IMG/VR virus record: IMGVR_UViG_3300032240_001377
Location: 1-56,601 of that record
Strand: one strand, 5' to 3'
Length of the DNA: 56,601 bases
Origin: a virus
Lineage: Duplodnaviria > Caudoviricetes
Shown here: piece by piece, positions 4,562 through 29,252 of the stretch
Position numbering within the stretch: the first letter of the stretch is position 1
Layout: every line of letters begins with the position of its first letter
Notes under the pieces: model-generated
Database searches by the model: none
What the model saw: only the letters and a program-made list of their open reading frames with translations
Told to the model about the DNA's origin: nothing
Program-made: the position numbers and the translations under genes

Positions 4562-6690
4562 AGCCCTGCAAGGACATCACTATCGAGCCGTTGGCAGGTG
4601 GCCTTGATCTGAGGTCCGAAAGCGGGTCTGTGGATCCAGGCAACTACCGACTCATCCTCAACATGAGCGGAGACCGGGCTGAGTCCTGGTGCCGGATGAA
4701 TGGCTGGTCCAGGTACGGTTGGGACAACGATTGTGTCAACAATCTGGATCTCCATGACCAGATGATCGACGGGTCCGGGTTCTATTCGCAGCCGTACGAC
4801 TACACCTCAGGGGCTCGCTCAAACGTACTTGGGACAATCTATTCCCTGTGGTATGTGGCTGGCGCCTATGGTTACGGTCCTCTGCTTGAGGTGTCCACCC
4901 TAGTCCCGTCCGAGACCACCGAGTATTGCTACCCTGGCCTGTACTACCTTGGTGGACAATGCCATGAGGCTCCCACACTACTTGAATCAGTCACTTCCAC
5001 CACCGGAAAGCGCCGGCTGGTAGCAGCCACCAAGTCCCGCATCTACGCCGGGGACGACAAGGGTGGGAACTGGACCATCTTGGCTGACGGTTTGGGTGGC
5101 CCCACCACGGCGGAGGACTGCATCTGCTCTACCAAGCGGTTCCGTATGGCCCAGCTTGGCAACACGGTGCTGTTCACAAATGGAATCGACCCGGTGATGG
5201 CCTGGGAGATTGGGATGGCCCCGTCCGGCTGCTACTACTGGACGGCTGATTTCGTCACCGAACTCCAGGGAATCGGTGTCACCAACGCCAAGGTGATTGC
5301 TACCTGGGGCGGGTTTGTGTTCGCCGGAAACGTGCTGGATTCCGGATCCATACGTCCTTCACGGTTGTACTGGAGCGACTACAATGACCCGTACTCATGG
5401 GTTCCGGATGCCGAGTCCTTGGCCGGATACCATGACTTCGGACTGGGTGAGAAGATACAGGCCATGCACCCCATTGGTGGGAGGCTGCTGGTCTACACCG
5501 ACAAGGCCATCTACGAGGTGGTCCAGTCCACATCCACCGAGCTGGTGTTCGCGGTCAACGAGATGTACCGGGGACCGGCCATACCAAAGTTCCCGTACGC
5601 CATCATCAACACCGGCACTACCCATGTGTGGCTTGGGGATGATGACATGTGGACCATGAACGACTTTGACCGTTCACCCCAGCGTGTCCAGTGGATGCGT
5701 GGGGCCAGTGCGGCCATCTACAAGGGTATCAAGTCCGAGTATCTGACCGATCTTCCTGACGGAATCCTGTCCGCCTACTCCCCGATCAACAAGGCGAAGT
5801 GCGACTTGGCCAGCGGATGGTGGAACCCATTGGACCAGTCACTGTGGTTCAGTTGGCCCACCGGTTCGTCTGTCTGCCCAAACCTGACATTGGTTATCTG
5901 GACCCAGACCGGCAAGGCCAGCCTGGTTGACCATGGCATCCTGGCCGCCACTGTCCATCGTCCCGACACGTCCCCAACGCTCAGGGATTTCCTTGGGGAC
6001 TACGGGCTGTGCGACCCTTCTACTCTCCGTTCCACAAAGGAGGGTGATCCATGCCCTGTGGACTTCACTCCAGTTAGCTACACTGGTCTTGTAAACTCCA
6101 CGGAGAATTTTTCACTAGGAGTGAAACAGGGATCATTGTTGTCGAATTTCTGCAACATGAGTCTGGATGAACTTTGCCGGGCTTGTGAGGCTGGTGAACG
6201 GTGGCTGTTTGTCAGCGCATCAGACAAGGCTATCAAGGAGTTCACAAAGGCAAACTATTCGCGCCAGCAGTTGAGCACTTCCGAGGATGTCACATTCCCG
6301 GCAGTGGGTGAGGCTACATACACTGCATCGTCCTACCCGTCTCTGATCCAGACGGATGGCATGAACTTCAAGTCGTCCACTGAGAAGCGGGTACAGGCCA
6401 TGAGCGTGGAGTTCACCGCCGAGGACCAGACGGTCCCAGGGGTTCTCTATGCAGCGGTTGGGGCGGGTTCACAGCCAAGCTGTCTGGACTGGGAAACTGC
6501 TGATGGAGTGGATCTTGAATGTCTTGATGCGCCTACCGACAGCCAGACACGTGCCACCAAGATACCTCGCTACGCTTTCTGGGTGGACGGTGTGAACATC
6601 GCCTGGAGAATCTGGACCAACGGTACTGGTAATGCGTTCTGTCTGAGTGGTGTCACACTGAAGATGCAGGGTGCTACCAAGTGCTGGTGA
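4558..6690 (+). CDS. Tail tube / head-closure protein (P22 gp10 / T7 gp12-like), Cys-rich
   Basis: Beta-rich 710 aa, N-terminal GGL, RLYWSD motif, position before ejection genes. Confidence 0.55.
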   Translation: MKPCKDITIEPLAGGLDLRSESGSVDPGNYRLILNMSGDRAESWCRMNGWSRYGWDNDCVNNLDLHDQMIDGSGFYSQPYDYTSGARSNVLGTIYSLWYVAGAYGYGPLLEVSTLVPSETTEYCYPGLYYLGGQCHEAPTLLESVTSTTGKRRLVAATKSRIYAGDDKGGNWTILADGLGGPTTAEDCICSTKRFRMAQLGNTVLFTNGIDPVMAWEIGMAPSGCYYWTADFVTELQGIGVTNAKVIATWGGFVFAGNVLDSGSIRPSRLYWSDYNDPYSWVPDAESLAGYHDFGLGEKIQAMHPIGGRLLVYTDKAIYEVVQSTSTELVFAVNEMYRGPAIPKFPYAIINTGTTHVWLGDDDMWTMNDFDRSPQRVQWMRGASAAIYKGIKSEYLTDLPDGILSAYSPINKAKCDLASGWWNPLDQSLWFSWPTGSSVCPNLTLVIWTQTGKASLVDHGILAATVHRPDTSPTLRDFLGDYGLCDPSTLRSTKEGDPCPVDFTPVSYTGLVNSTENFSLGVKQGSLLSNFCNMSLDELCRACEAGERWLFVSASDKAIKEFTKANYSRQQLSTSEDVTFPAVGEATYTASSYPSLIQTDGMNFKSSTEKRVQAMSVEFTAEDQTVPGVLYAAVGAGSQPSCLDWETADGVDLECLDAPTDSQTRATKIPRYAFWVDGVNIAWRIWTNGTGNAFCLSGVTLKMQGATKCW

Positions 6691-8977: not shown

Positions 8978-11900
8978 ATGCCCATCTACACTGTTACCGA
9001 GGATTCCACTGGCCGGTCCATTGACTTCGACGGGGAGTCCCCTCCTGACCAGTCCACGGTGGACCAGGCGTTCCGTAACTACGACGCCTTCAAGATCGCA
9101 CAAGCCGGTCCCCGTGGAAGTCGTGAACGCCGTGTAGCCTCCGCCCAGGTCACCGCCCAGAACTCCCAGGATGCCTTTGCCAAGGAGTCTGGCGGTTCCA
9201 CTTCTTCTCCTTTCACTTCAGCCATAGCCTCCCTTGGTGCTGGTGCGTCTGAAGGTGGATCAAAGATCATCAAGAGCATTGGTCGGTTTGCCTCCTATCT
9301 TCCTGAGTCCATGGGAGCAGGCATCGCGGACAGTCCTGTCCCGGCCGATCAGATGACGGCTGCCGCCATCCTTGAGCGCAGCGACAACAACCCGCTCGTT
9401 CAAGCTGGCCAGTCATTGGAAGATCAAGGAAAGGCGACCTATCCAGTCAACCCGAAGTATCCATGGGCCAACCTTCCTGGATCAGCCATCGCTTCAGGTC
9501 TTTCCGTGGTGGCTGCTGGGCCACTGGCAGTGCCGGCCTATGCCGCCCAGTCGTTCGAGTCTGGACTTCAGGACAGCAGGGACGCAGGGGCCACACCTGA
9601 GCAAGCCATCCAGCAGGGTGCTGTTGAAGCCCTGACTGGTGCGGCCACCGAGGCTTCACTGGGTCTCGTCCCGTTCCTCCATGAGGCAGCCAAGGGGGTC
9701 ACCCGTGGCTTCCTGAAGCCCACCGCAAAGGCTATCGTTGGCGAGGCCATCCAGGAGCCCACTGAAGGCATCCTCAACCGGTTGTCTGCGAAGTACCTCA
9801 CCCAGACCCAGCCCGGGATCGACCCGTTCGACCCGCAGACCATCGCCATGGAAGCAGCGGGTGGTGCCATCGGAGCCGGCGCCATCTCAGGCGGATTCAC
9901 TGGGGCCAACCAGTACCAGCGTGGACAGAGGTTGGCGCAAATCAGGCAGTACCGCGCAGATCCTCTGGCCCAGCTTGCCAACCAGGTCGAGAACGGACCC
10001 ATGGGGTCTTCTCCCCAGTACCAGCTTGAGCAGCAGCTTCGCCAGATGCCCCGTGCGGAAGCTCCTCGCGGCATCCTGAACCTCCAGCCCAACTTCCCCA
10101 TCGCCGGTCCTTCCCAGGACGAGACGGCTTCAGGGATTGGGCAGATCCAGGACCAGTCCGTCCAGACCCCGTTCGACCAGTTACGCAACCGGGCTATCCG
10201 TGCCCAGCGACGGGCTAATGTGGAGCAGGGCCTTACCATGGAACAGCCGTCTCAACCGGTTGAACAGCCTGTCCAGCAGGTGGGCCAGTACCCGGCTGAA
10301 GGGTTTGGTACGGGCGCCATCGTCTCACCAGAGGAACAGGCCCGCCGTGATGCAGTCCGAGCCAGGGTGGAACAGGCCAATGCCCAGCAGGCTGAACAGG
10401 CCCGCGCTGAGGCTCTACGCCAGCAGAACCTTCAGGCCCAAGCCCTGGTCGTGGCAGCCCGTCAAGCCGAAGCGGAACGGCAGGCCGAGGTGCTGGCACG
10501 GTACGAGCGGATGAAGGCTCGCCCCATCTCCACCCCGTTCCTGGATGCCCAGCTTCCACAGCCAGTCCAAGCCCCGCTCGTACAGACCGACCAAGGATTG
10601 ACCGAGGTTGTCCAGCCTGAAGGCCAGACTCCGATGGACGATCTGATAGCCAGGCTGCGTGCTGTCCGTGCCCAGACTCCAGCCACCGCTAGTGGTGGAT
10701 TTACTCCTGGAGGAGCACTCCAAGCTGTAGGTGGAATCACGGCTGACTTTGGAGGGCTGAAGATGTCTGTTATTCCAAGCCCTGATGATCCGTCCATTGG
10801 GTTTGTAACCGGGCTTTCTGGAAGTGGAGTCGCTGGGAAGCTTAACGAGATCAAAGCAGCCCTAAACAATGCAGGGTTCAGGGACATCCAGTATCGTCCA
10901 GACAATGAGGACGGCCGGTCTGCTGCGAGGGTTCGCCTGTTTGAGTCCCTGAAGGCTAAGATAGCATCTCAATCCATCACACCTTCCAATGAAAACCAAG
11001 TCCCTCAAGCAGGTTCGCTACCTAATGTCAAAGGTCAGCCCTCTCAAACCAGCGCAGAAGTCCAAGCTACGCCGGGAACTGCACAGCAAAAAGGTGCGAA
11101 TCCGGAAGTAGCGGAGCCGGTGTATCCGGTTGGTTTCAAGCCGTTCATTGACGAGAATGGAATTGTTGTTGAGCGGTGGAGGCCAAGCCGGTTTGACCTG
11201 AACAACCCTCCTGCTGGAGTGGACGTTGGCATCGCTGACTTCTATTCGCGTGGTGGCGGCAGCTACATGTGGCGGGCTGTTGGTGATGGTGAGTTGGTGA
11301 AGCTGCTTTCCAGATCCAAGACATACGGTGGCGGCGTGTCTGGTCGTGGGAACTACCTTGCCGCATATCCTGAGAAGGCTGCCAAGTGGGATCCTGAACA
11401 GCAGAGCAAGTACCTGATCGAGTTTGCTGGAGCAAAGCCCTCAGGAGAGACATCAAAGAACAAGCTTACACTGGACAATGTAACCCGTATCCTTGTTCGT
11501 GAGAATGGACAGTGGCGTGCATTGACGGATCAGGAGCGTCAGGAGTTGGTATACCAAAAGCCACCCACCCCTTCCGGTGTCCGTCTCCGAAAGGAACCCA
11601 TTTCCCGCAGTAACCCTGCGGCGGCCCAAAGACTCGCTACCTTGGGGCAGGCTGCTCCCTCTTCGGAGGGGGCGGCTTCTTCTGCTTTCGGTGTACGCAG
11701 CTACGGTGGAACCACCATCACCCGTGAACAGGTGGCATCCCATAATCAGGAGGTAGAGAAGCGTGCTGCTGCCGGTGATCCCACAGCTATCCGTGTCCAG
11801 AAGCTGATCGCATCCGTGGACACCGACCAGGGTGTGGGCCGTTTTGCTGGGTATGCCACATTGCCTGATTCCGGGAAGAACAAGGCGCTGGCCTACTACT

Positions 11901-14900
11901 CCACCTCGCTCTATCGCCAGATTGGAAAGTGGCTGGATGGAGGGGAGTTCAAGTTCCAACCGCTGGCAGTCAGCCGGTCGGCCACTAGTTCTTCCGGGAA
12001 GACCCAAGCTGTCCAGATGGAGGCCAAGACGGTGGGCGAGACCCCGCTTGGCGAGGACACGGCCGAGACCAACCTGACCCGTTCATCGGAACCCATAGTC
12101 CAACAGGTCCCACTGGCCAAGCCGGTCAAGCTCCAGGAGGAATCGGTCAAGACCATCCTCGATCTCCAGCGTGAGCTGGGTGTCAGTTCCGAGTCACTGG
12201 TCCGGATCATCCATGCTTTCCAAGACCAGAACACCAGCGACTTGGACGACCAGGAACTGGCTGCACTGGAAGCTGCCACGCCCACACTGAACAAGCTTAG
12301 GAACGTCCAATACTCGGTGGCTGGAGAGGCTGCACCGTTCTACTCCCGACTTGTCCGTACTGTTGAGCAGTCACAGCAGGGCAAGGCCACCGGCGCTCAA
12401 TGGAAGGCGCTCATTAAGAACAGTAAGCTTGGCACGAACAGCGACGAGTTCGCCTTGGTCGGCGTGAACGACCTTGAGGACGGCAAGACCTACACCAAGG
12501 CGGAGGTTCTGGAGTACCTGAATGCCAACCAGGTGGCGGTGAAGGATGTGACGTTGGGTGAAGGGCTGTCTGGCGATGCCCAAAAGCGTTTTGAAGAAAT
12601 CCAACTGCGCTATCGGATTCTCACGGACGAGATGGCTGGCAACCGTTTCCAGCGTGAAAACAGGGAAATAACCTTGGAGGAGTCTCGGAGAAATGCCAGC
12701 AGGCTAAGTGCTGAAAGGAGCAATCTGGATGACGAAATGAACGCCATTAACAGGCAGCGTTCTGAAACCCACTTCTCCTCCTACCAACTGCCCGGTGGTA
12801 AGGAAGGATCGTACAGGGAAGTGTTGCTGACGGTTCCTGGTTCAAATACGAGTGGTAAATCTGGAGCTGAACTTGAGGATTGGAAGCGACAGGCAGCAAT
12901 CAAGTATGGGCCAAACTGGAATCGCCAAGACCTGACTTGGTTTGAGCGCCAAAAGCTTGATGAGTTCACTATTCCAACAAGTTGGGTGGACGGACACAGC
13001 CAATACTCCTCCATAACCAATCCCATCGTCCGTCTCCGCTTCAACGAGCGCACGACCGCTGACGGGAAGCGGATGCTTTTCCTTGAGGAAGTCCAAGCCC
13101 CACAAAAGGCCCAGTTCGAGAAGATGCCTGCCCTGTTCCAGAAGAACTGGCGGGAGATCGCGTTCAAATGGGCACTCCGTCATGCGGCGGATAACGGGTT
13201 CGACAGCGTGGGCTGGACCACTGGGGAACAGCAGGCGGAGCGGTATGACTTGAGCCAACAGGTGAAACGGATTGAATGGAACTCAGTTCGTGAACGCCCT
13301 GGTCAGGTTCTTCTGACTGTGTTCAACACCAACGATTCTCGGGTGATGAACGAGTGGATGCCTGTCGAGAAGGTGGAGTCCGTTGTCGGAAAGGAAATAG
13401 CCGCCAAGATTCTCAACGAACCAAACGGCACACTTCAAGGAGACGGCCTGAAGATCGGCGGAGAAGGCTTGAAGAAGCTGTACGACTCCGACTTCCGCAA
13501 CGTCGTGAACGGCCTGCCGGCTGTGAAGAAGAGCGGGCAGAAGGTGGGGATGGCGGAAATCAACAAGCCGGGTGGAATCGGTCAGTGGCGCTACGAAGGA
13601 CCGTTGTTGCTGCCTGAAGAAGTCCGCGCCATCGCACGCAAACAAGACGTGCGTGTGGAGCAGCAGTTGAACGACATCGCCAATAGCGTTCTAAATGGAA
13701 CGGATCTTCACGATGCCGTGGAGCAGCTAGGCTCCGCCTCGGCAGCACGGGCGCTTGGTGGAACTTTGGTGCCGGTGGACAAGACGCTTCCGATCCACGC
13801 CATCGCCATCACCCCAGCCATCCGCGACTCCGTGATGGGCGGGCAGGCTTTGTTCTCTGTTGGAAGTTCCCTGTCCACCCTAATCAGGGAACCGCTTGGA
13901 CTGGAGCGTACCCAGGAAGCGGTGAACCAGTGGAAGGCTGTCCATGGAGGACAGGACATAGCCATCCGTGTGGTGGACGATCCCAACCTGAAGACCCCTG
14001 ACGGCCGGACTGTGGCTGCACAGGTCGAGATGGTCCCGGGTGGTGTGCCCATCATCACCATCAACGCCTCCCAAGTGGGATCGGCTGCGGAAGTCCATGA
14101 GAAGATTTGGCATGAGCTGTTCCACCCGGTCTGGAACGATCCGTCTGTCCAGCAGGCTTGGGGTGAGGTGATGCAGTCTGTGGACCAGCGGATGGTTGAG
14201 GGCCAGTTGGCCCGTGGCTACTCGCCGGAGGAGGCAGCCATGGAAGCAGCCATCGACTTGGCTGCCATGAAGGCTGGTGACAAGAAGGTCCGGTCGGCCT
14301 GGAAGCGGTTCCTGGACAAGGTGTGGAATGCCATGAAGAAGGCGTTTGGGTTCGAGGTCCGGCCGAACAACTTCGAGGCCCTGATGATCTCTGCCCTGCG
14401 CCAGGCCAGCCGGCCGTGGAATGGCCAGCAGCAGAACCAGTACAACCAGGATGTGGCCGCACTGGACAAGGCCCACTTGGAAGCTGTGGCCCGTGGTGAC
14501 ATGGCTACGGCACAGAGGCTGGTGGACGAGGCGGCGAAGAGGGCCGGGTACTCCACTGCAAAGCCTGGCAATAATGCCTCCAAGCGGAACAGCCTTCGGG
14601 TAAAGCTGTCCCGTCAGGCATTGACGGATCTCGCGCTATCACAGGCCAACTGGAGGGATTGGTACAAGGAACATCAGGATACGCTAAATGCCTTCTTTGG
14701 AAGCGACGCTGGTTTGTTCCAGAAGATCCTGGCCATCACATCTCAGGCGGCTTCAGTGAAGGCGAATGTCGGCCTGGCCTTGAAGGCTTTCGCGCAGTTC
14801 AAGCAGGGGCTGGCTTTTGATGGATACCTTCCTGCCGTAATCGGAAATCTCAATGCACTTCGTGCCGAGACACAGATTCAGGGAAGGAAGATCGGAGCCT

Positions 14901-17900
14901 ACACTTCAGCCAACGAGGGTCAGACCGATGCAGTTGTCGTGGATCGGCATATTGCACGGATGCTTTTCGGGGTTGATACCCCCTCTGCCGCACAGTTTGC
15001 AAAGGCGGCCCGCGTGCTTACCGAGATAGCCAATGAAATCGGGTGGGAACCGCGTCAGGTCCAAGCTGCTCTTTGGGCGGCATCAATCGTAAAGTCGGGA
15101 AAACAACCTCAATCTTATGGACAATACCTCAAGCAGCTCAATTCAAACGGAACCCTCGCGGAACGAATTGGACATGTTGTTGATAGAAGCTCAGAGATCT
15201 ATGGAATTGGCGGAAGCGGGGTCGCTGATTCTGGAGGAATCTCAACAGAGACTGAAGGATCCAAGTCGGCCGACCCAGTAACCTACGACGACGCCGGCAA
15301 GGTGGTGCTCCTGTCCCAGCGGTTCAACCCGCAGAACAAGGACATCCGCTACTCGGTGGCCAACAACCTGTACGTCACCAGCCCGACCAAGTTCAACACC
15401 ATCGCTGCCAATGGACAGACCGAGGCTGTGGCAGCCCAGGGTCAGGTATCCTCGGCCATCGTTCCGGAATCTACTCTCAAGGTGGTCTCCGATCTGGAGG
15501 CCAAGCAGGACCGTAACCCAGTCGAGAACGCCACCCTCAAGGCCCTGAAGGGTGTGAGCAACATCGCCCAAGTGGCTGCTGCGGCGGACCAGCTTCGTGC
15601 CAATGTGGATGGGATGCCCTCCTACACGACCATCAACCAGCTACCGGAGGAGTTCAAGAGTGTGGGCGCCCAGTCGGTGATGGCCACCCACTTCTACCTG
15701 AACCAGTTCCGCAAATCCATCCGCACCCAGATGGAGCGGGCCTCCAACGATGTAGCCACGTTGTCCCAGGAACTGGCTGACCTGACGCCGGACCGGTTGC
15801 TGGCCACGCTCACCTCCCATGAGGCGGACGAGATGCTGGTCAACCTCCAGAAGTTCCTGGATGTGGAGCAGGGCAAGCTGGGCACGTCCACTGCATCCCG
15901 TACCCGCGAGGAACTGGACAAGGCTTCCGCTGCCATCGTTGGGATGCGGCGAAAGATCGAGGCAATCTCCGCAGGGTTGCAGGCCATGGCCAAGGAGATG
16001 CCCCTGGCCGACTTCGACAGCCCGGCCGCCGTGAAGGCTTGGCTGGAGTCGCGCATGGCCGACAAGAACCTTCCCCTGTTGATGGGGCAGGACGTGTTCC
16101 AGACCATCCGTGTGGCCCTCAACAAGGACTCCACCCTGCACAACCGCCTCTCCATGGTGCGGGGACTCATGGCCGACACCCAGGCAGCCAAGAAGGAGCT
16201 GGAAGGGTTGGCCAAGCAGCTTGGATCCGGCAAGCCCGCTGTGGTCTTGAAGCGGATCATCGAGATGAAGGGTGATGCCCGGGCTGTCCTTGATAACGTT
16301 CGCCGGTTGGACCTTCGTCTTGACCGGGCCATGAACAAGATCGAGGGGTTGACCGAAGCTGGAAACGTGATGGACCAGATGCAGGTCGATCCGTCCTACC
16401 AGGAACGGGTCAAGTCCGCTTTCGACTACGCCGGGTTCAAGTATTCCGGGGTGATCCGGTTTGACGACCAACCCTCCGGAAACCAGACGCTTCGTGCCCC
16501 GGACGGGACGGAGTACCGTATCAACTTCTCTCCCGATTTTGCTGTCGAACGGCAGAACCTGGACACCCTTGGGAAGTGGATGGAGAAGACGTTGGATGCA
16601 CTTACCAATCCGGAGAGCCCACAGTACATCACCGACCCGGCCACCCGTACGTCCTACGCCAACACCATGGCGTTCGTCAGCCGGTTCTTGATGGACAAGC
16701 GGGGCTTGGTCGAGTCGGCCTGGGCAGATGCCGGGTCGGTCCAGACCATGAACGCCATCCTAGGTGCGCCTGAGAAGCTGGTGCAGTTGAAGTTCCTCCT
16801 CGGGGACCATCTGAACACGCGGTTCAACCTGTACCGCAATCTCGCCGGTCGGGCTGGGCTGGATCTGGTCAACCGTTCCCGTGCCATCGACCGGTTCATG
16901 GCCGAGGTGAAGAACATCCTCGATGCCACCCGTACCCAGAATGCTGCTGCACGGCGGAAGGCCATCCTGTCCCACGGTCTCAACCCGGATGACCCGGCCG
17001 ACTACGAGCTGTGGAATAGTACGGTCAACTCCTGGATCCTGAGCCAGAACCAGAACCCTGGGTCCCGTCCTGTGCAGGAAGGGGTGCATGTGGGGATGGG
17101 GCTTGAGGTCACCAAGGAGGACATCGCCTTCGCCGGTCTCCAGCACAAGTTCTCCAGGGCCATCTCGGAAGCCTACTCCGGGATCATTGGAGAGGACATG
17201 GTGCAGGACCCGAATGCCCCGGGCTACAACCCGGAGGAGACCCTGTTTGGACAGGTGTTCTCGCGCAAGGCCATGCAGTTTGGGTTTGCCACCGGCCGCA
17301 AGTTCTCCCATGCCGGCCGGGAGTACACCAAGCTCTGGATGGATGCCCGGTCCAAGGATCTCGCCGAGTACAAGGCTAGCGTGGCTGCTGCCCCAGAAGG
17401 GACTGAAGTCCCCATGGTGTACACCGAGCGGAAGAAGGTGGCCGAGGAATCCATGGAGGGCCATGTGTACGCCCATATCCGTGAGAGCAACCCGGAGTAC
17501 ACGTCCACCGCAGACAAGGGCCTCAGGGAAGCCTACCGGGATGTGGCTAATGCCATCCGTAGCGGCGCAGACTTCCGTTCCATCACCGACCTGTCAATGG
17601 CTCTCGCCGAGGCGATGACCACGGACGAGAAAGATGTGGGTGCCTTTGAAGCGGAGCAGTCCTTGATGAAGGCGCTGGACCGGGATGTGGTGAACTACAA
17701 CATGGCCGCCGAGGTGGTGGGTTCAACCTCTCCCAACGAGACTGTAACCGACCTTCCTCCTGCCCTCCGGTCCATCAAGACGGCCAAGGGTGCGCTGGTT
17801 AAGGCGCGTGGCAAGATGGTGGCCCCGTCCTTCTTCTACGACTACTCGATTGGCACCGACCTGGACCGGTCCTCGATGGTGCAGATGGGCAAGCAGGCCC

Positions 17901-20128
17901 TGATGATCTCCGAGGTAAACGCCGCACGTAACATGGTGGCTGCCATGCGGGACAAGCTGGATGGGCACGAGCGCCAGATCGACAAGAACGCCAAGGTGAT
18001 AGGGCGGAACGGTAAGCCTGTCGGTCGAGGCAGGGCCATCGCTGAACTGGATGCGGAACTGAAGAAGAAGTTCAGGGAAGGCGCCGAGTTCATCACCTAC
18101 AAAATGCTGAAGAAGCACATCGCCGCACTGGAGACAGCCATTGGTGACCGCGAGAAGTCCATGGTGCGGGAGCGGGTTACCGAGGAGGAATCCTTCAAGG
18201 TGTCCATGGTGAATGCCTTGGGTGGTGGTGTCATCTCGTCCATCCTGTCCGCCCCGGCCCCCATGATTAACAACATGCTTGCCGTGGTGACCGATCCTGT
18301 CCGTATCGGAATGATGGTGGGAGGGCCGTTGACCGCCATCAACTGGGCTGGACGAGGGGCCATGAGTGCCCTCAAGTACAGCTTCCAGAAGCTGGTGAAC
18401 GGTGTGGTCGATGCCACGGGTGTTGTCCTGAGCAGGGATGCCAAGGCCAAGCTTGCTGAGATGGCCTCGTTCATCACCGGGTCGATGCTGGATACCCGGT
18501 CCAATCTTGAACGGTCTGGAACCATCGACGCCCCGGAGTCGTTCACGTCAATCTGGTCCAGGTACAAGAACAACCCCGCTGCGTTTGGCAGGGCCACAAG
18601 GGCGCGTGAGACCGAGTTCTCAAAGAACTTCTCGCGGGTAATGACTTCACCCTTGTTCGCCTACGGGTTCCTGCCCGCCATGGGTGAGTGGCTGAAGCAG
18701 AAGGCCCCAGGGTCCGGTGACCGTATGGTCAACTACGTCAACGCGAAGATGGGGACACTTATGGCCAACCGTTACGCGCCATACCTGTGGAACTGGGTGA
18801 ACGAGCAGGACGGCACCACTGTTGAGGAGAAGATCCGGTCCGCCATGGAAGCTGGGGCTCTCCGTGGATCGGACCTTGGTGTCTCCGACGAGGCCATGGC
18901 CAACATCCGTGACATCCTTGGACCCGCTGGATCGCTGGAGAAGCTGGCCTTGGACTACTACCGTGCCAACCCGAATGGTGCGAAGGGTCCGCTCCTGAAC
19001 CAGTCCCAGCGGGAAGGGGTTGAGTTCGAGATCGCTGCCATCACCAACAAGGAGACCGACTCCACCCGTCCTGACATCACCAAGGGCGGGGCTGGGATGG
19101 AGAACACCTTCCGACGGATGCTGTATCTCTTTGCCCGTTACATCCTCCAGCACATGGGGGTGAACAAGCGGGTGTTCGGGATCAAGGGCGGGGATGGTGG
19201 TGGGCTGGGCAAGGACCTGAAGAAGGGGCTGGGCTATCTGTTCGTGCTGGCCATGACCCTGTTGGCCGGTTCTCTGGCCCTGCCCATCAAGCAGCTTGCC
19301 CGTACATTGCTCCAGCGGGAACCGCTTACATCGCCCACCATCGTACAGGCGTTCGATTCTCCTGAGATGGCCGGGAAGTACCTGGCCAGTGCGGCCATGG
19401 GCGTGCTGCCGGTGGGTGCGGCTGCGGTCGGGATGGCTTTGACCGGGAATGGGGTGAATGGACCCATCACAGCAAACTTCTTCGACAGCAACCCGATTGC
19501 TGGTGCTGCCAACAACCTGATCCAGGCGGCCACCTCGGCCTACCAGACCAAGGACATCACCTACCCTGCACTGGACCTGGCCCGGAAGACGTTCTGGTTC
19601 AGCCAGCCCCTCATCAACGCTGCTATGCCGGGAGACACCATGGCCCGTGAGGCGAATAGGGCTGTCCGTACTGCGGCCACCGGGCTTGAAATCCGTCCTC
19701 AAAGTGGTGGTGGTATGGGACGGTCCACGCCGGTTACACCGTTTGTCAGGGATGCAGTGGCGGCCACCTACGAGGGCAACGCTGAAGCCTTTGCTGCCGC
19801 CAAGCAGAAGGCCATCGACTACTACGTGAGCCAGGGCAAGACGGCCAAGGAGGCTGAGGCCCGGTTCAACTCGTCGGTCAGTGGGCGTGACCCGTTCAGG
19901 AGCGTGTTCGGAAGGACTCCCACCGCAGACGAGACGGCCACCGTCCAGCGCCGGCTTACTTCCGGTCAAGCGGAGACGCTTTCCAAGGCCAACTTCTCCC
20001 GTCCAGCCAGGCTCAGGAAGACCAAGGGAAGTGTCAGCCTGCGGAAGAGGAGGAAGTCGAAGGGGTACACCGGGCTTCGGAAGCCTTCTTCACGGCGCGT
20101 GCGATTGCGGCGCGTTGCCTATTCCTGA
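8978..20128 (+). CDS. Giant (3716 aa) polyvalent internal virion / ejection protein
   Basis: Cys-free; HELFH zincin motif; VVVDRHIAR glycosylase-like motif; YSV/FSV module ends; C-terminal hydrophobic helices and basic tail. Confidence 0.8.
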   Translation: MPIYTVTEDSTGRSIDFDGESPPDQSTVDQAFRNYDAFKIAQAGPRGSRERRVASAQVTAQNSQDAFAKESGGSTSSPFTSAIASLGAGASEGGSKIIKSIGRFASYLPESMGAGIADSPVPADQMTAAAILERSDNNPLVQAGQSLEDQGKATYPVNPKYPWANLPGSAIASGLSVVAAGPLAVPAYAAQSFESGLQDSRDAGATPEQAIQQGAVEALTGAATEASLGLVPFLHEAAKGVTRGFLKPTAKAIVGEAIQEPTEGILNRLSAKYLTQTQPGIDPFDPQTIAMEAAGGAIGAGAISGGFTGANQYQRGQRLAQIRQYRADPLAQLANQVENGPMGSSPQYQLEQQLRQMPRAEAPRGILNLQPNFPIAGPSQDETASGIGQIQDQSVQTPFDQLRNRAIRAQRRANVEQGLTMEQPSQPVEQPVQQVGQYPAEGFGTGAIVSPEEQARRDAVRARVEQANAQQAEQARAEALRQQNLQAQALVVAARQAEAERQAEVLARYERMKARPISTPFLDAQLPQPVQAPLVQTDQGLTEVVQPEGQTPMDDLIARLRAVRAQTPATASGGFTPGGALQAVGGITADFGGLKMSVIPSPDDPSIGFVTGLSGSGVAGKLNEIKAALNNAGFRDIQYRPDNEDGRSAARVRLFESLKAKIASQSITPSNENQVPQAGSLPNVKGQPSQTSAEVQATPGTAQQKGANPEVAEPVYPVGFKPFIDENGIVVERWRPSRFDLNNPPAGVDVGIADFYSRGGGSYMWRAVGDGELVKLLSRSKTYGGGVSGRGNYLAAYPEKAAKWDPEQQSKYLIEFAGAKPSGETSKNKLTLDNVTRILVRENGQWRALTDQERQELVYQKPPTPSGVRLRKEPISRSNPAAAQRLATLGQAAPSSEGAASSAFGVRSYGGTTITREQVASHNQEVEKRAAAGDPTAIRVQKLIASVDTDQGVGRFAGYATLPDSGKNKALAYYSTSLYRQIGKWLDGGEFKFQPLAVSRSATSSSGKTQAVQMEAKTVGETPLGEDTAETNLTRSSEPIVQQVPLAKPVKLQEESVKTILDLQRELGVSSESLVRIIHAFQDQNTSDLDDQELAALEAATPTLNKLRNVQYSVAGEAAPFYSRLVRTVEQSQQGKATGAQWKALIKNSKLGTNSDEFALVGVNDLEDGKTYTKAEVLEYLNANQVAVKDVTLGEGLSGDAQKRFEEIQLRYRILTDEMAGNRFQRENREITLEESRRNASRLSAERSNLDDEMNAINRQRSETHFSSYQLPGGKEGSYREVLLTVPGSNTSGKSGAELEDWKRQAAIKYGPNWNRQDLTWFERQKLDEFTIPTSWVDGHSQYSSITNPIVRLRFNERTTADGKRMLFLEEVQAPQKAQFEKMPALFQKNWREIAFKWALRHAADNGFDSVGWTTGEQQAERYDLSQQVKRIEWNSVRERPGQVLLTVFNTNDSRVMNEWMPVEKVESVVGKEIAAKILNEPNGTLQGDGLKIGGEGLKKLYDSDFRNVVNGLPAVKKSGQKVGMAEINKPGGIGQWRYEGPLLLPEEVRAIARKQDVRVEQQLNDIANSVLNGTDLHDAVEQLGSASAARALGGTLVPVDKTLPIHAIAITPAIRDSVMGGQALFSVGSSLSTLIREPLGLERTQEAVNQWKAVHGGQDIAIRVVDDPNLKTPDGRTVAAQVEMVPGGVPIITINASQVGSAAEVHEKIWHELFHPVWNDPSVQQAWGEVMQSVDQRMVEGQLARGYSPEEAAMEAAIDLAAMKAGDKKVRSAWKRFLDKVWNAMKKAFGFEVRPNNFEALMISALRQASRPWNGQQQNQYNQDVAALDKAHLEAVARGDMATAQRLVDEAAKRAGYSTAKPGNNASKRNSLRVKLSRQALTDLALSQANWRDWYKEHQDTLNAFFGSDAGLFQKILAITSQAASVKANVGLALKAFAQFKQGLAFDGYLPAVIGNLNALRAETQIQGRKIGAYTSANEGQTDAVVVDRHIARMLFGVDTPSAAQFAKAARVLTEIANEIGWEPRQVQAALWAASIVKSGKQPQSYGQYLKQLNSNGTLAERIGHVVDRSSEIYGIGGSGVADSGGISTETEGSKSADPVTYDDAGKVVLLSQRFNPQNKDIRYSVANNLYVTSPTKFNTIAANGQTEAVAAQGQVSSAIVPESTLKVVSDLEAKQDRNPVENATLKALKGVSNIAQVAAAADQLRANVDGMPSYTTINQLPEEFKSVGAQSVMATHFYLNQFRKSIRTQMERASNDVATLSQELADLTPDRLLATLTSHEADEMLVNLQKFLDVEQGKLGTSTASRTREELDKASAAIVGMRRKIEAISAGLQAMAKEMPLADFDSPAAVKAWLESRMADKNLPLLMGQDVFQTIRVALNKDSTLHNRLSMVRGLMADTQAAKKELEGLAKQLGSGKPAVVLKRIIEMKGDARAVLDNVRRLDLRLDRAMNKIEGLTEAGNVMDQMQVDPSYQERVKSAFDYAGFKYSGVIRFDDQPSGNQTLRAPDGTEYRINFSPDFAVERQNLDTLGKWMEKTLDALTNPESPQYITDPATRTSYANTMAFVSRFLMDKRGLVESAWADAGSVQTMNAILGAPEKLVQLKFLLGDHLNTRFNLYRNLAGRAGLDLVNRSRAIDRFMAEVKNILDATRTQNAAARRKAILSHGLNPDDPADYELWNSTVNSWILSQNQNPGSRPVQEGVHVGMGLEVTKEDIAFAGLQHKFSRAISEAYSGIIGEDMVQDPNAPGYNPEETLFGQVFSRKAMQFGFATGRKFSHAGREYTKLWMDARSKDLAEYKASVAAAPEGTEVPMVYTERKKVAEESMEGHVYAHIRESNPEYTSTADKGLREAYRDVANAIRSGADFRSITDLSMALAEAMTTDEKDVGAFEAEQSLMKALDRDVVNYNMAAEVVGSTSPNETVTDLPPALRSIKTAKGALVKARGKMVAPSFFYDYSIGTDLDRSSMVQMGKQALMISEVNAARNMVAAMRDKLDGHERQIDKNAKVIGRNGKPVGRGRAIAELDAELKKKFREGAEFITYKMLKKHIAALETAIGDREKSMVRERVTEEESFKVSMVNALGGGVISSILSAPAPMINNMLAVVTDPVRIGMMVGGPLTAINWAGRGAMSALKYSFQKLVNGVVDATGVVLSRDAKAKLAEMASFITGSMLDTRSNLERSGTIDAPESFTSIWSRYKNNPAAFGRATRARETEFSKNFSRVMTSPLFAYGFLPAMGEWLKQKAPGSGDRMVNYVNAKMGTLMANRYAPYLWNWVNEQDGTTVEEKIRSAMEAGALRGSDLGVSDEAMANIRDILGPAGSLEKLALDYYRANPNGAKGPLLNQSQREGVEFEIAAITNKETDSTRPDITKGGAGMENTFRRMLYLFARYILQHMGVNKRVFGIKGGDGGGLGKDLKKGLGYLFVLAMTLLAGSLALPIKQLARTLLQREPLTSPTIVQAFDSPEMAGKYLASAAMGVLPVGAAAVGMALTGNGVNGPITANFFDSNPIAGAANNLIQAATSAYQTKDITYPALDLARKTFWFSQPLINAAMPGDTMAREANRAVRTAATGLEIRPQSGGGMGRSTPVTPFVRDAVAATYEGNAEAFAAAKQKAIDYYVSQGKTAKEAEARFNSSVSGRDPFRSVFGRTPTADETATVQRRLTSGQAETLSKANFSRPARLRKTKGSVSLRKRRKSKGYTGLRKPSSRRVRLRRVAYS
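10989..11111 (+). CDS. Overprinted 40-aa basic peptide (+1 frame inside giant gene)
   Basis: MKTKSLKQVRYLMSKVSPLKPAQKSKLRRELHSKKVRIRK; GC3-biased codons in this frame; G-poor leader. Confidence 0.55.
   Translation: MKTKSLKQVRYLMSKVSPLKPAQKSKLRRELHSKKVRIRK
15117..15281 (+). CDS. Overprinted 54-aa acidic helical peptide (+1 frame inside giant gene)
   Basis: MDNTSSSSIQTEPSRNELDMLLIEAQRSMELAEAGSLILEESQQRLKDPSRPTQ; A/C-rich leader. Confidence 0.45.
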   Translation: MDNTSSSSIQTEPSRNELDMLLIEAQRSMELAEAGSLILEESQQRLKDPSRPTQ

Positions 20129-28128: not shown

Positions 28129-28296
28129 TCATTCCATAACCGCATACACCACCATCAACGGCCCGCACGCCACCGCCCCGATCACATCGCCTATCCTGTC
28201 CCAGAACAGGAAGTGGCAGACTACCATGGGGATGATCCATACAGCCAACCACAGGATGGCCAGGATGTAGAGGACTGCTCGGATGGTGGATTTCAT
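28129..28296 (-). CDS. Small membrane protein
   Basis: Two hydrophobic segments, 55 aa. Confidence 0.5.
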   Translation of the reverse strand: MKSTIRAVLYILAILWLAVWIIPMVVCHFLFWDRIGDVIGAVACGPLMVVYAVME

Positions 28297-29252
28297 TTTA
28301 CGTTCCTCTCGGAATACTTGGTCAGTGCATCCCCCATGGACTCCCGGATCAGCTCCGGATCCCGGTCCACGTAGGACATGAACATCTTCGGGTCCTTGTG
28401 CCCGACAATCTGGCAGCCCACCAATGGATTGATGCCACCATTGGCCAACCGGGTAATCAGTCCTCTCCGGAATGAATGGGGGGTGAACCCGCGAGCCCGC
28501 AGGCCCGACTTGTTCAGGGCCGCATTCATGCGCTGGATGAATCGCCGGTTGCTCACATCGAGCCAAGCATGGGGGTGGACGTACTCCACGTTGGGCACGT
28601 TGGGCCAGAGGTAGCGGTCCCTGTCCCGCTTGGTGGCGCGGTCACGGATCATCCCAGCCAGCTGACAACAGGGATCCACCGGGATGATGCATGGCTTGTC
28701 GTAGTTTCGGATCTTCTGGCGGACCTTCTGGATGATCCACCGCTCCATGTCCACCTCCTCCCACAACAGCCCCGCCGCGTCCACCAGGGCCAGACCGGTG
28801 TTGAACATGAGGCAGTACAGCCAGTGGGAGTTGGGATCCTTGTCGTGGTCCAGCAGGATCCGGTACTCCCGTTCCATGACGGGAGGATGGAAGATGGGCT
28901 TCTTGGCAGGAGGCGGACGGATGCCATTGGCTGGGCTGTTCCGGCAGTACCCAGCCATGACCAGCCAAGCGCAGAACTGCTTCACCCCAGCCCATTCCAC
29001 GCTGCCACCAGCCCCTTCCCGGGTACGGATCAGGTGGTCCCGGTAGGCCAGCAGGTTGGGCCGGCTCAATGGACGCCCAGCCAGGAACAGTTCAAGGTTT
29101 TTGACGCAGTATCCAATCCTCCCAAGGGACGATTCGGTCAGTTCCGTCCGCCTCTCGGCCAGGAACTCCTTGGCCAAGTCGAACAGGGACGGCATCCGGA
29201 CCACCTCCCGCAATGGGGGCAATGGTTCCACCACCAGTTCCAGTTCGTTCAT
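28293..29252 (-). CDS. Tyrosine recombinase / integrase (Arg-I replaced by Ala)
   Basis: TGLA.D, RQK, HSFRR, VGH and Y motifs; SAM-like N-terminal domain. Confidence 0.85.
   Translation of the reverse strand: MNELELVVEPLPPLREVVRMPSLFDLAKEFLAERRTELTESSLGRIGYCVKNLELFLAGRPLSRPNLLAYRDHLIRTREGAGGSVEWAGVKQFCAWLVMAGYCRNSPANGIRPPPAKKPIFHPPVMEREYRILLDHDKDPNSHWLYCLMFNTGLALVDAAGLLWEEVDMERWIIQKVRQKIRNYDKPCIIPVDPCCQLAGMIRDRATKRDRDRYLWPNVPNVEYVHPHAWLDVSNRRFIQRMNAALNKSGLRARGFTPHSFRRGLITRLANGGINPLVGCQIVGHKDPKMFMSYVDRDPELIRESMGDALTKYSERNVK

Follow-up and report, generated by a model that had tools for sequence, protein, structure and literature searches.

The complete 56.6-kb virus record IMGVR_UViG_3300032240_001377 (Duplodnaviria; Caudoviricetes) carries, inside a giant gene of the polyvalent-protein type, a short +1-frame open reading frame (ORF) at 15117-15281 that, judged by comparison with related loci, very probably is a genuine overprinted (embedded) gene whose product is an amphipathic helix. 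All positions below are those of the window, the whole 56,601-nucleotide stretch that was analyzed. An earlier note on the window had described this ORF as encoding a 54-amino-acid acidic amphipathic peptide with an A/C-rich leader, and had proposed that the peptide is a nested immunity protein; the coordinates and the frame agree with our results, as does the acidic and amphipathic character, for which we obtained a net charge of -5 and a predicted helix. Our overall interpretation is that the peptide of this overprinted gene works with the protein module that it overlaps, a reading that we consider an even call. Phages are known to have embedded out-of-frame genes, but few cases are well supported, and such genes are passed over by gene callers.

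The nested ORF starts within the last helices of a main-frame domain, DUF7178, and stops within a main-frame motif found at module junctions (Table 1). This matches its earlier placement between the end of a glycosylase-like domain and the flank of a cassette. The ATG is made by the TAT-GGA of a conserved main-frame Ser-Tyr-Gly, and the 16 nucleotides (nt) that precede it, AAACAACCTCAATCTT, contain no G.

Relatives were gathered with the main-frame domain as the only bait, yielding first 10 loci with the domain, then 63 from IMG/VR (alignment A1) and 34 from metagenomes (alignment A3). INPHARED phage records gave no match by tblastn or blastn, and no domain relative was found in reference prokaryote genomes. 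The comparison set is made up of the window and 64 loci, with 47 distinct sequences and domain identities of 36 to 88%. A +1 ORF of at least 45 codons opening with ATG or GTG is present in 65 of 65 loci (ATG in 43 and GTG in 4 of the distinct sequences), and the loci that retain it range from 39 to 61% GC. In the +2 frame, an equivalent ORF occurs in 1 of the 65. About half of the loci use the same TAT-GGN ATG as the start.

In 15 loci (L024-33 and L036-40), the ancestral start is gone or is followed by two to four stops, and a new ATG (GTG in L037-39) lies directly past the last stop, with the downstream core peptide intact. The distance from stop to new start is 0 to 1 codon in seven of these loci (L024, L031-33, and L037-39) and at most 7 codons in the other eight. 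Such replacement of the start is what would be expected for a protein with a dispensable N-terminal extension. With the main protein held fixed and synonymous codons resampled, the probability that the +1 frame is open and has a start has a geometric mean of 0.067 over 18 lineage representatives. The product of these values, 6.5e-22, overstates the significance because the lineages are not fully independent, and the conclusion stands without it.

The pattern of variability changes register inside the nested ORF. Along the codon alignment from 14609 to 15148, main-frame position 3 is the most variable in 18 of 18 ten-codon bins (0.45 to 0.68), and the first ten or so nested codons (15117-15148) still follow this main-frame pattern. 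From 15149 onward, the most variable position is main-frame position 1, which is position 3 of the +1 frame (0.45 to 0.58), while main-frame position 3 drops to 0.29 to 0.30. Among 12 non-overlapping pairs, differences at main-frame positions 1/2/3 number 245/138/782 in the domain and 81/57/55 in the core of the nested ORF (chi-square of 106, p of 8e-24).

Amino acid identities and substitution counts follow the same frame. In an ungapped 34-codon block from 35 sequences (24 distinct), mean pairwise amino acid identity is highest for the +1 frame (0.47), followed by the main frame (0.39) and the +2 frame (0.34). Over the 14 codons that separate the main-frame motifs RIG and GRGR, the corresponding values are 0.41 (+1 frame) and 0.26 (main frame). 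The +1 identity exceeds that of the main frame in 230 of the 276 pairs; the two are equal in 27 pairs, and the main frame is ahead in 19. Sorted by effect, the core differences comprise 70 that are silent in the +1 frame but not in the main frame, 54 for which the opposite holds, 2 that are silent in both, and 104 that are silent in neither. Relative to the spectrum of possible changes, omega in the core is 0.60 in the +1 frame (binomial p of 8.7e-4) and 0.96 in the main frame (p of 0.44). These alignments show the +1 frame to be under purifying selection, with the constraint divided between the two frames: the variable N terminus of the peptide lies over the conserved end of the HhH-GPD domain, and its conserved helix lies over a Gly/Ser/Arg-rich main-frame linker.

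Most relatives carry a main-frame motif after the domain, consisting of RIG, 14 residues, and GRGR[FY][AS]P (for example, L013:2059-2160). This motif is lost in the window's own clade (the window, L012, and L077; absent at 15179-15260), which kept the +1 peptide.

The nested peptide has a pI of 4.4 and no signal sequence, and the median charge of its family is -6. In an alignment of 32 family peptides (A4), L18, L21, and G35 are invariant, and E17, A25, and L39 nearly so. AlphaFold predicts a single helix at residues 15 to 47, with a mean predicted local distance difference test (pLDDT) score of 80 (over 90 for residues 21 to 40) and disordered ends. Hydrophobic residues form a seam of 3-4 spacing at positions 18, 21, 22, 25, 28, 29, 32, 38, 39, 42, and 46, and by this model, the helix should pair with itself or sit in the groove of a partner. 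A profile search of 1.84 billion representatives returned 13 matches at an E value of at most 0.001, 12 of which are 44- to 78-amino-acid peptides of the same family. The eight clusters that were inspected contain 15 members, of which 12 come from contigs under 3 kb; the sole name among the members is "hypothetical protein." These database peptides are gene-caller predictions and say nothing on expression. No locus in viral contigs was found for a divergent one (P0131), and the ESM Atlas search for the peptide was uninformative, with a best score of 0.78 and no neighbor.

The domain that the ORF overlaps matches PF23802 (DUF7178) with an E value of 7.3e-6 and 26.5 bits, half a bit below the cut-off of 27; many relatives have a precomputed PF23802 match. 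Its AlphaFold2 model has a pLDDT of 91.2. In a VIA-align comparison of the domain, 22 of the 23 top rows were HhH-GPD glycosylases or DUF2419, with Z scores from 11.8 to 6.2 followed by a drop to 3.9, and the best match was 3n0u (Z of 11.8, root mean square deviation of 3.4 over 166 residues). The top Foldseek rows were Ogg2 enzymes, weakly matched (E values of 0.1 to 0.2). The domain is thus modeled with a two-lobed helical HhH-GPD fold, and the name "glycosylase-like" that the earlier note gave it is borne out for the fold only. Two residues, Lys1971 (14888-14890; 64 of 64 loci) and Asp1989 (14942-14944; 65 of 65 loci), are invariant and 18 residues apart; we take them to be the catalytic pair of the HhH-GPD family, in which a catalytic Asp follows the hairpin and bifunctional enzymes also have a Lys. 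They align with the G-x-K...D-R-H-I (GMK...IIDRHI) of the Ogg/apurinic-apyrimidinic (AP) lyase 9o00 at a sub-threshold E value of 0.09. Ogg2-type 8-oxoguanine DNA glycosylase/AP lyases (Tm1821, 3n0u) are like the adjacent domain in being its best structural matches, and unlike it in that the domain is only 11 to 14% identical to them, with a sequence match below significance.

The domain and the nested ORF move as one unit, since the cassette listed in Table 1, which holds the domain and most of the ORF, is the sole DNA that the giant gene shares with that of record G001 (query positions 5596-6271 of 11151). The ORF does travel with the cargo, as had been supposed.

The RNA around the nested start has unusually little predicted structure. 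The 60 nt centered on it have a GC fraction of 0.40 versus 0.59 for the background, and 0.8% of giant-gene windows are less structured. In a comparison of the ten ATG-initiated +1 ORFs of 40 or more amino acids in the giant gene, the nested ORF is set apart by its very weakly structured start window (z of +2.6). Relative to the locus background, structure around the start is also weaker in 24 of the 25 representatives (mean z of +1.88), in part because the conserved main-frame motif has AT-rich codons. Between 14500 and 15600, we found no sigma-70-like sites that could serve as an internal promoter and one terminator-like site (14795-14812), which equals the shuffle expectation.

In the mechanism that we propose, ribosomes would initiate within the long late mRNA, using an ATG that lies in this unstructured, G-poor stretch, and would produce a peptide of about 50 amino acids. 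The peptide, predicted to be an acidic helix with one continuous hydrophobic seam, would act with the overlapped module. The comparative sequence evidence leaves evenly balanced, in our view, the claim that the peptide is a partner of the domain that it overlaps. Retention of the ORF in all loci of the set, across a wide range of GC content and in otherwise unrelated giant proteins, favors a target that belongs to the phage itself, and no partner other than the domain is constant. As a specific role, it is most likely that the peptide would bind the glycosylase/AP-lyase-like domain and hold it inactive in the producing cell. With both products coming from the same transcript, the peptide supply would track the domain supply. 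By analogy with known inhibitors (see below), a role as inhibitor or immunity protein of the domain is a tentative proposal, on the unlikely side. Complex prediction for the domain (A3) and peptide (A2) gave scores of 0.22 and 0.14 versus a mark of 0.32, which speaks neither for nor against binding.

The fullest form of the proposal, a mobile enzyme cassette of injected polyvalent proteins that encodes its own +1-frame inhibitor across the domain-linker boundary, such that a toxin-immunity pair occupies the same nucleotides, is slightly more doubtful still. If it were true, module shuffling could not separate the enzyme module from its antidote, and the two would share one transcript. The inhibitor would protect the replicating phage DNA and the producer cell, and it would be left behind at packaging and injection of the polyprotein.

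Several points weigh against a nested gene that works with its overlapped module. Judged within the window alone, neither the length nor the rarity of the ORF goes beyond what chance predicts: the giant gene contains, in its +1 frame, 8 ATG-initiated ORFs of 54 amino acids or more, of which the nested ORF is the shortest, and the expected numbers are 7.0 +/- 2.1 from codon shuffles and 7.5 +/- 2.1 from synonymous shuffles. The +1 ORF of one locus, L047, could be chance (probability of 0.46, with a structured start). The excess of core differences at position 1 over a uniform spread is modest in independent pairs (p of 0.039), and some of the signal reflects double constraint because the main-frame linker is itself partly conserved (GRGR[FY][AS]P in most relatives). 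Neither the window nor the loci sharing its ATG have a clear Shine-Dalgarno sequence ahead of this start; purine-rich or GGAG-like runs lie ahead of the start in some relatives, and an obvious Shine-Dalgarno sequence is also missing at many other genes of this phage. The peptide belongs to no known family in Pfam and PHROGs, where the 32 members share no match and have single matches only, at E values of at least 0.011. Linkage to the domain is not independent evidence of shared function because the overlap forces it. Finally, 11 of 11 distant relatives of the domain (24 to 40% identity) have the Lys and Asp and no nested ORF; the domain is therefore not always in need of such a partner, which speaks against an obligate immunity role. 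Co-conservation of the +1 ORF with the domain, a check that the earlier note had proposed, holds within the clade, at 65 of 65 loci, and fails for these distant relatives. Another conserved +1 peptide, that of a second domain clade (described below), has no demonstrable homology to the nested peptide (A4 versus A5; hhalign probability of 3.6%).

The strongest alternative, which we regard as a serious possibility though not the one we would expect, is a real overprinted gene whose function is unrelated to the domain. In this case, a helical peptide born in a permissive linker would ride with the cassette and act on a different phage or host process. All of the evidence that the ORF is a gene applies equally here, and both the forced linkage and the distant relatives that do without the ORF fit this explanation. 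It also has a precedent in comS, a small separate-frame gene with an unrelated role inside the large srfAB, as far as the excerpted source goes (PMC12915044). Retention at every locus of the set, over very different giant proteins and at 39 to 61% GC, is hard to square with a host-specific target, and among potential partners only the domain is shared by all of these loci.

We regard it as improbable that the ORF is not a gene. In that case, its open frame and apparent conservation would be by-products either of a main-frame linker that is conserved and of low complexity or of a constraint acting on the nucleotides themselves, for example an RNA structure or a recombination site. The chance-level ORF count in the window would fit this explanation, as would the conservation of GRGR[FY][AS]P in the main frame. 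The Gly/Ser/Arg-rich main frame also has few codons able to create +1 stops, and the probability of an open frame reaches 0.3 to 0.7 in some loci. However, the three-base period of the variability is that of the +1 frame and not the main frame, core omega is about 1 in the main frame and well below this in the +1 frame, and the start codon is either kept or replaced directly after new stops. RNAalifold predicted no conserved structure in the core (0 base pairs), and the window's clade dropped the main-frame motif and kept the +1 peptide. For the nested ORF itself, resampling of synonymous codons under a fixed main protein yields an open frame with a start at a probability of 0.016 to 0.019; the value of 0.019 is the lowest for any of the ten ATG-initiated +1 ORFs in the giant gene that reach 40 amino acids.

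A programmed frameshift into the +1 frame, yielding a truncated polyprotein that ends in the helix just past the glycosylase-like domain, is very improbable: the +1 frame is open for 25 to 88 codons upstream of the ATG in several loci and GGGAAAA lies 15 to 21 nt upstream of the window ATG, but this heptamer, the only slippery-looking one, would promote a -1 shift into the other frame, the stops just before the start in 15 loci argue against entry by frameshift, and all 65 loci have a start codon though synonymous shuffles keep one only 15 to 74% of the time.

Known systems offer partial parallels, the closest in architecture being Rz1 in Rz and comS in srfAB, each described here as far as excerpts of the sources go. 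Lambda Rz1 is a small phage gene wholly inside Rz in the +1 frame; where one frame is constrained, the other is tolerant, and the products cooperate (PMC5295617). The nested ORF has the same partition of constraint between frames. Unlike Rz1, which is a secreted lipoprotein, the nested peptide lacks a signal sequence and its host gene encodes a 3716-amino-acid modular virion protein, with which any interaction of the peptide is putative. ComS of Bacillus subtilis is a small protein encoded in a separate frame within the very large modular srfAB and expressed from the srfAB transcript (PMC12915044). The likeness lies in a small out-of-frame ORF inside a very large modular gene; unlike the nested peptide, ComS is bacterial and regulates competence, a role unrelated to the enzyme of its host gene, and the two have no sequence similarity.

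For the inhibitor proposal, the nearest comparison is with Ugi, phi29 p56, and SAUGI, small acidic proteins of phages or mobile elements that block the DNA-binding site of a DNA glycosylase; p56 has 56 amino acids (PMC2018632, PMC3711442, and PMC3902945, as excerpted). The nested peptide resembles them in size and acidity only, and inhibition by it is conjecture. Unlike the nested ORF, they are stand-alone genes acting against the host uracil-DNA glycosylase, an enzyme with a fold different from that of the domain. Here, the putative target would be an HhH-GPD-like domain of the phage itself, and a single helix is predicted for the peptide. In the papers searched, we found no mention of DUF7178 or PF23802 and nothing specific on overlapping genes in polyvalent proteins or on embedded antitoxins.

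The evolutionary evidence for this nested gene is unusually clean, and the gene adds an unannotated protein family to these phages. It is welded to one enzyme module, the glycosylase-like HhH-GPD domain, and has persisted while all other parts of these proteins were shuffled. The case shows that polyprotein linkers can hide genes. An enzyme module with its own partner or inhibitor is a concrete, testable hypothesis. The case also illustrates that an ORF count in a single genome can miss a real overlapping gene that comparison reveals.

Table 1. Positions of the nested ORF, the giant gene, and associated features in the window
Feature	Position	Strand	Description
Giant main-frame gene (P0001)	8978..20128	+	Single ORF, 3716 amino acids, polyvalent-protein type
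Cassette: domain and most of nested ORF	14573..15248	.	Only giant-gene stretch matching record G001 DNA, 77% identity
HhH-GPD glycosylase-like domain (DUF7178)	14582..15178	+	Main frame; fold from model
Unstructured G-poor initiation region around nested ATG	15087..15146	+	Minimum free energy -4.7 kcal/mol vs background -16.7 +/- 4.3
Nested ORF (P0002)	15117..15281	+	+1 frame of the 8978-20128 ORF; ATG at 15117, TAA at 15279-15281; 54 amino acids
Conserved peptide core	15159..15257	+	Predicted amphipathic helix, residues 15-47
Module-junction motif KSADPVTYDDAGKVVLLSQRFNPQNKDIRYS	15263..15355	+	Main frame; KSADPVTYDD...DIRYS; nested stop TAA inside

The giant gene lies downstream of tail and virion-structural genes. 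A Pfam scan of its 3716-amino-acid product gave DUF7178 at residues 1894 to 2035 as the sole signal. A protein search with residues 1850 to 2350 found 138 relatives at an E value of at most 0.001 among 2081 candidates. All 138 are 2000 to 6200 amino acids long, and many have ART-PolyVal and other shuffled modules; PF18760, present in many of them, is named "ADP-Ribosyltransferase in polyvalent proteins" by one source. Polyvalent virion proteins of phages are thought to be injected and to counter host defenses. Because its relatives are giant proteins with shuffled ART-PolyVal modules, the gene fits the polyvalent-protein class (Iyer et al. 2017, PMC5512222), which it also resembles in being giant, made of many modules, and placed beside virion genes. 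It differs in that nested genes are not in the published description as far as a text search of PMC5512222 goes; the terms "frameshift," "overlapping," "alternative reading," and "linker" have 0 occurrences in that text.

Other genes in the window encode a terminase, a DnaB-type helicase, a replication initiator, an integrase, tail and virion-structural proteins, two HNH endonucleases, and methyltransferases. A search of the window for tRNA genes found none. The integrase is at 28293-29252 on the minus strand (phrog_1, E value of 2.9e-33), and given its presence, the phage may be temperate. A temperate lifestyle would matter for whether an antidote is required against a toxic module that is expressed late.

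Within the giant gene, a HELFH (HExxH, zincin-like) motif at 14111-14125 lies about 150 residues upstream of the glycosylase-like domain. The region has no Pfam match and may be a processing peptidase module. The junction motif, KSADPVTYDxxGxVxxLSxRFxxxxxxI[RN][YF], also occurs at other module borders in different giant proteins (L006, L007, L011, and L077) and may be a recombination or processing joint of polyvalent proteins.

Two other +1 ORFs of the giant gene were considered. The companion ORF that the earlier note had linked to the nested one, at 10989-11111 on the plus strand (40 amino acids), has a weakly structured start window (minimum free energy of -1.8, z of +3.24) and unremarkable openness (probability of 0.11). 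For its region, we found no related DNA loci and only three protein relatives besides the query. A wider system of nested antitoxins, which the earlier note had proposed from the two ORFs, would be conjecture. The longest, at 17088-17618 on the plus strand (176 amino acids), has a probability of 0.11 of being open and a strongly structured start (z of -1.98), and is probably due to chance.

Among relatives of the domain, a second clade (WAYNQVR type; 8 sequences: L043, L045, and L094-L099) has a different conserved +1 peptide, ...[YF]xPxxxxEKEEAFxLAxxLxxExK. This peptide begins at the same Ser-Tyr codon junction, and the clade shows a weaker codon-position shift of the same kind. In distant relatives (L102-L107; 33 to 40% identity), the glycosylase-like domain either closes its protein at the C terminus or makes up a protein of its own, with separate genes downstream; a DGNHR (ParB-like) motif is present in one of these genes in L104. 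In these loci, the modules that polyvalent proteins combine by fusion appear as separate genes.

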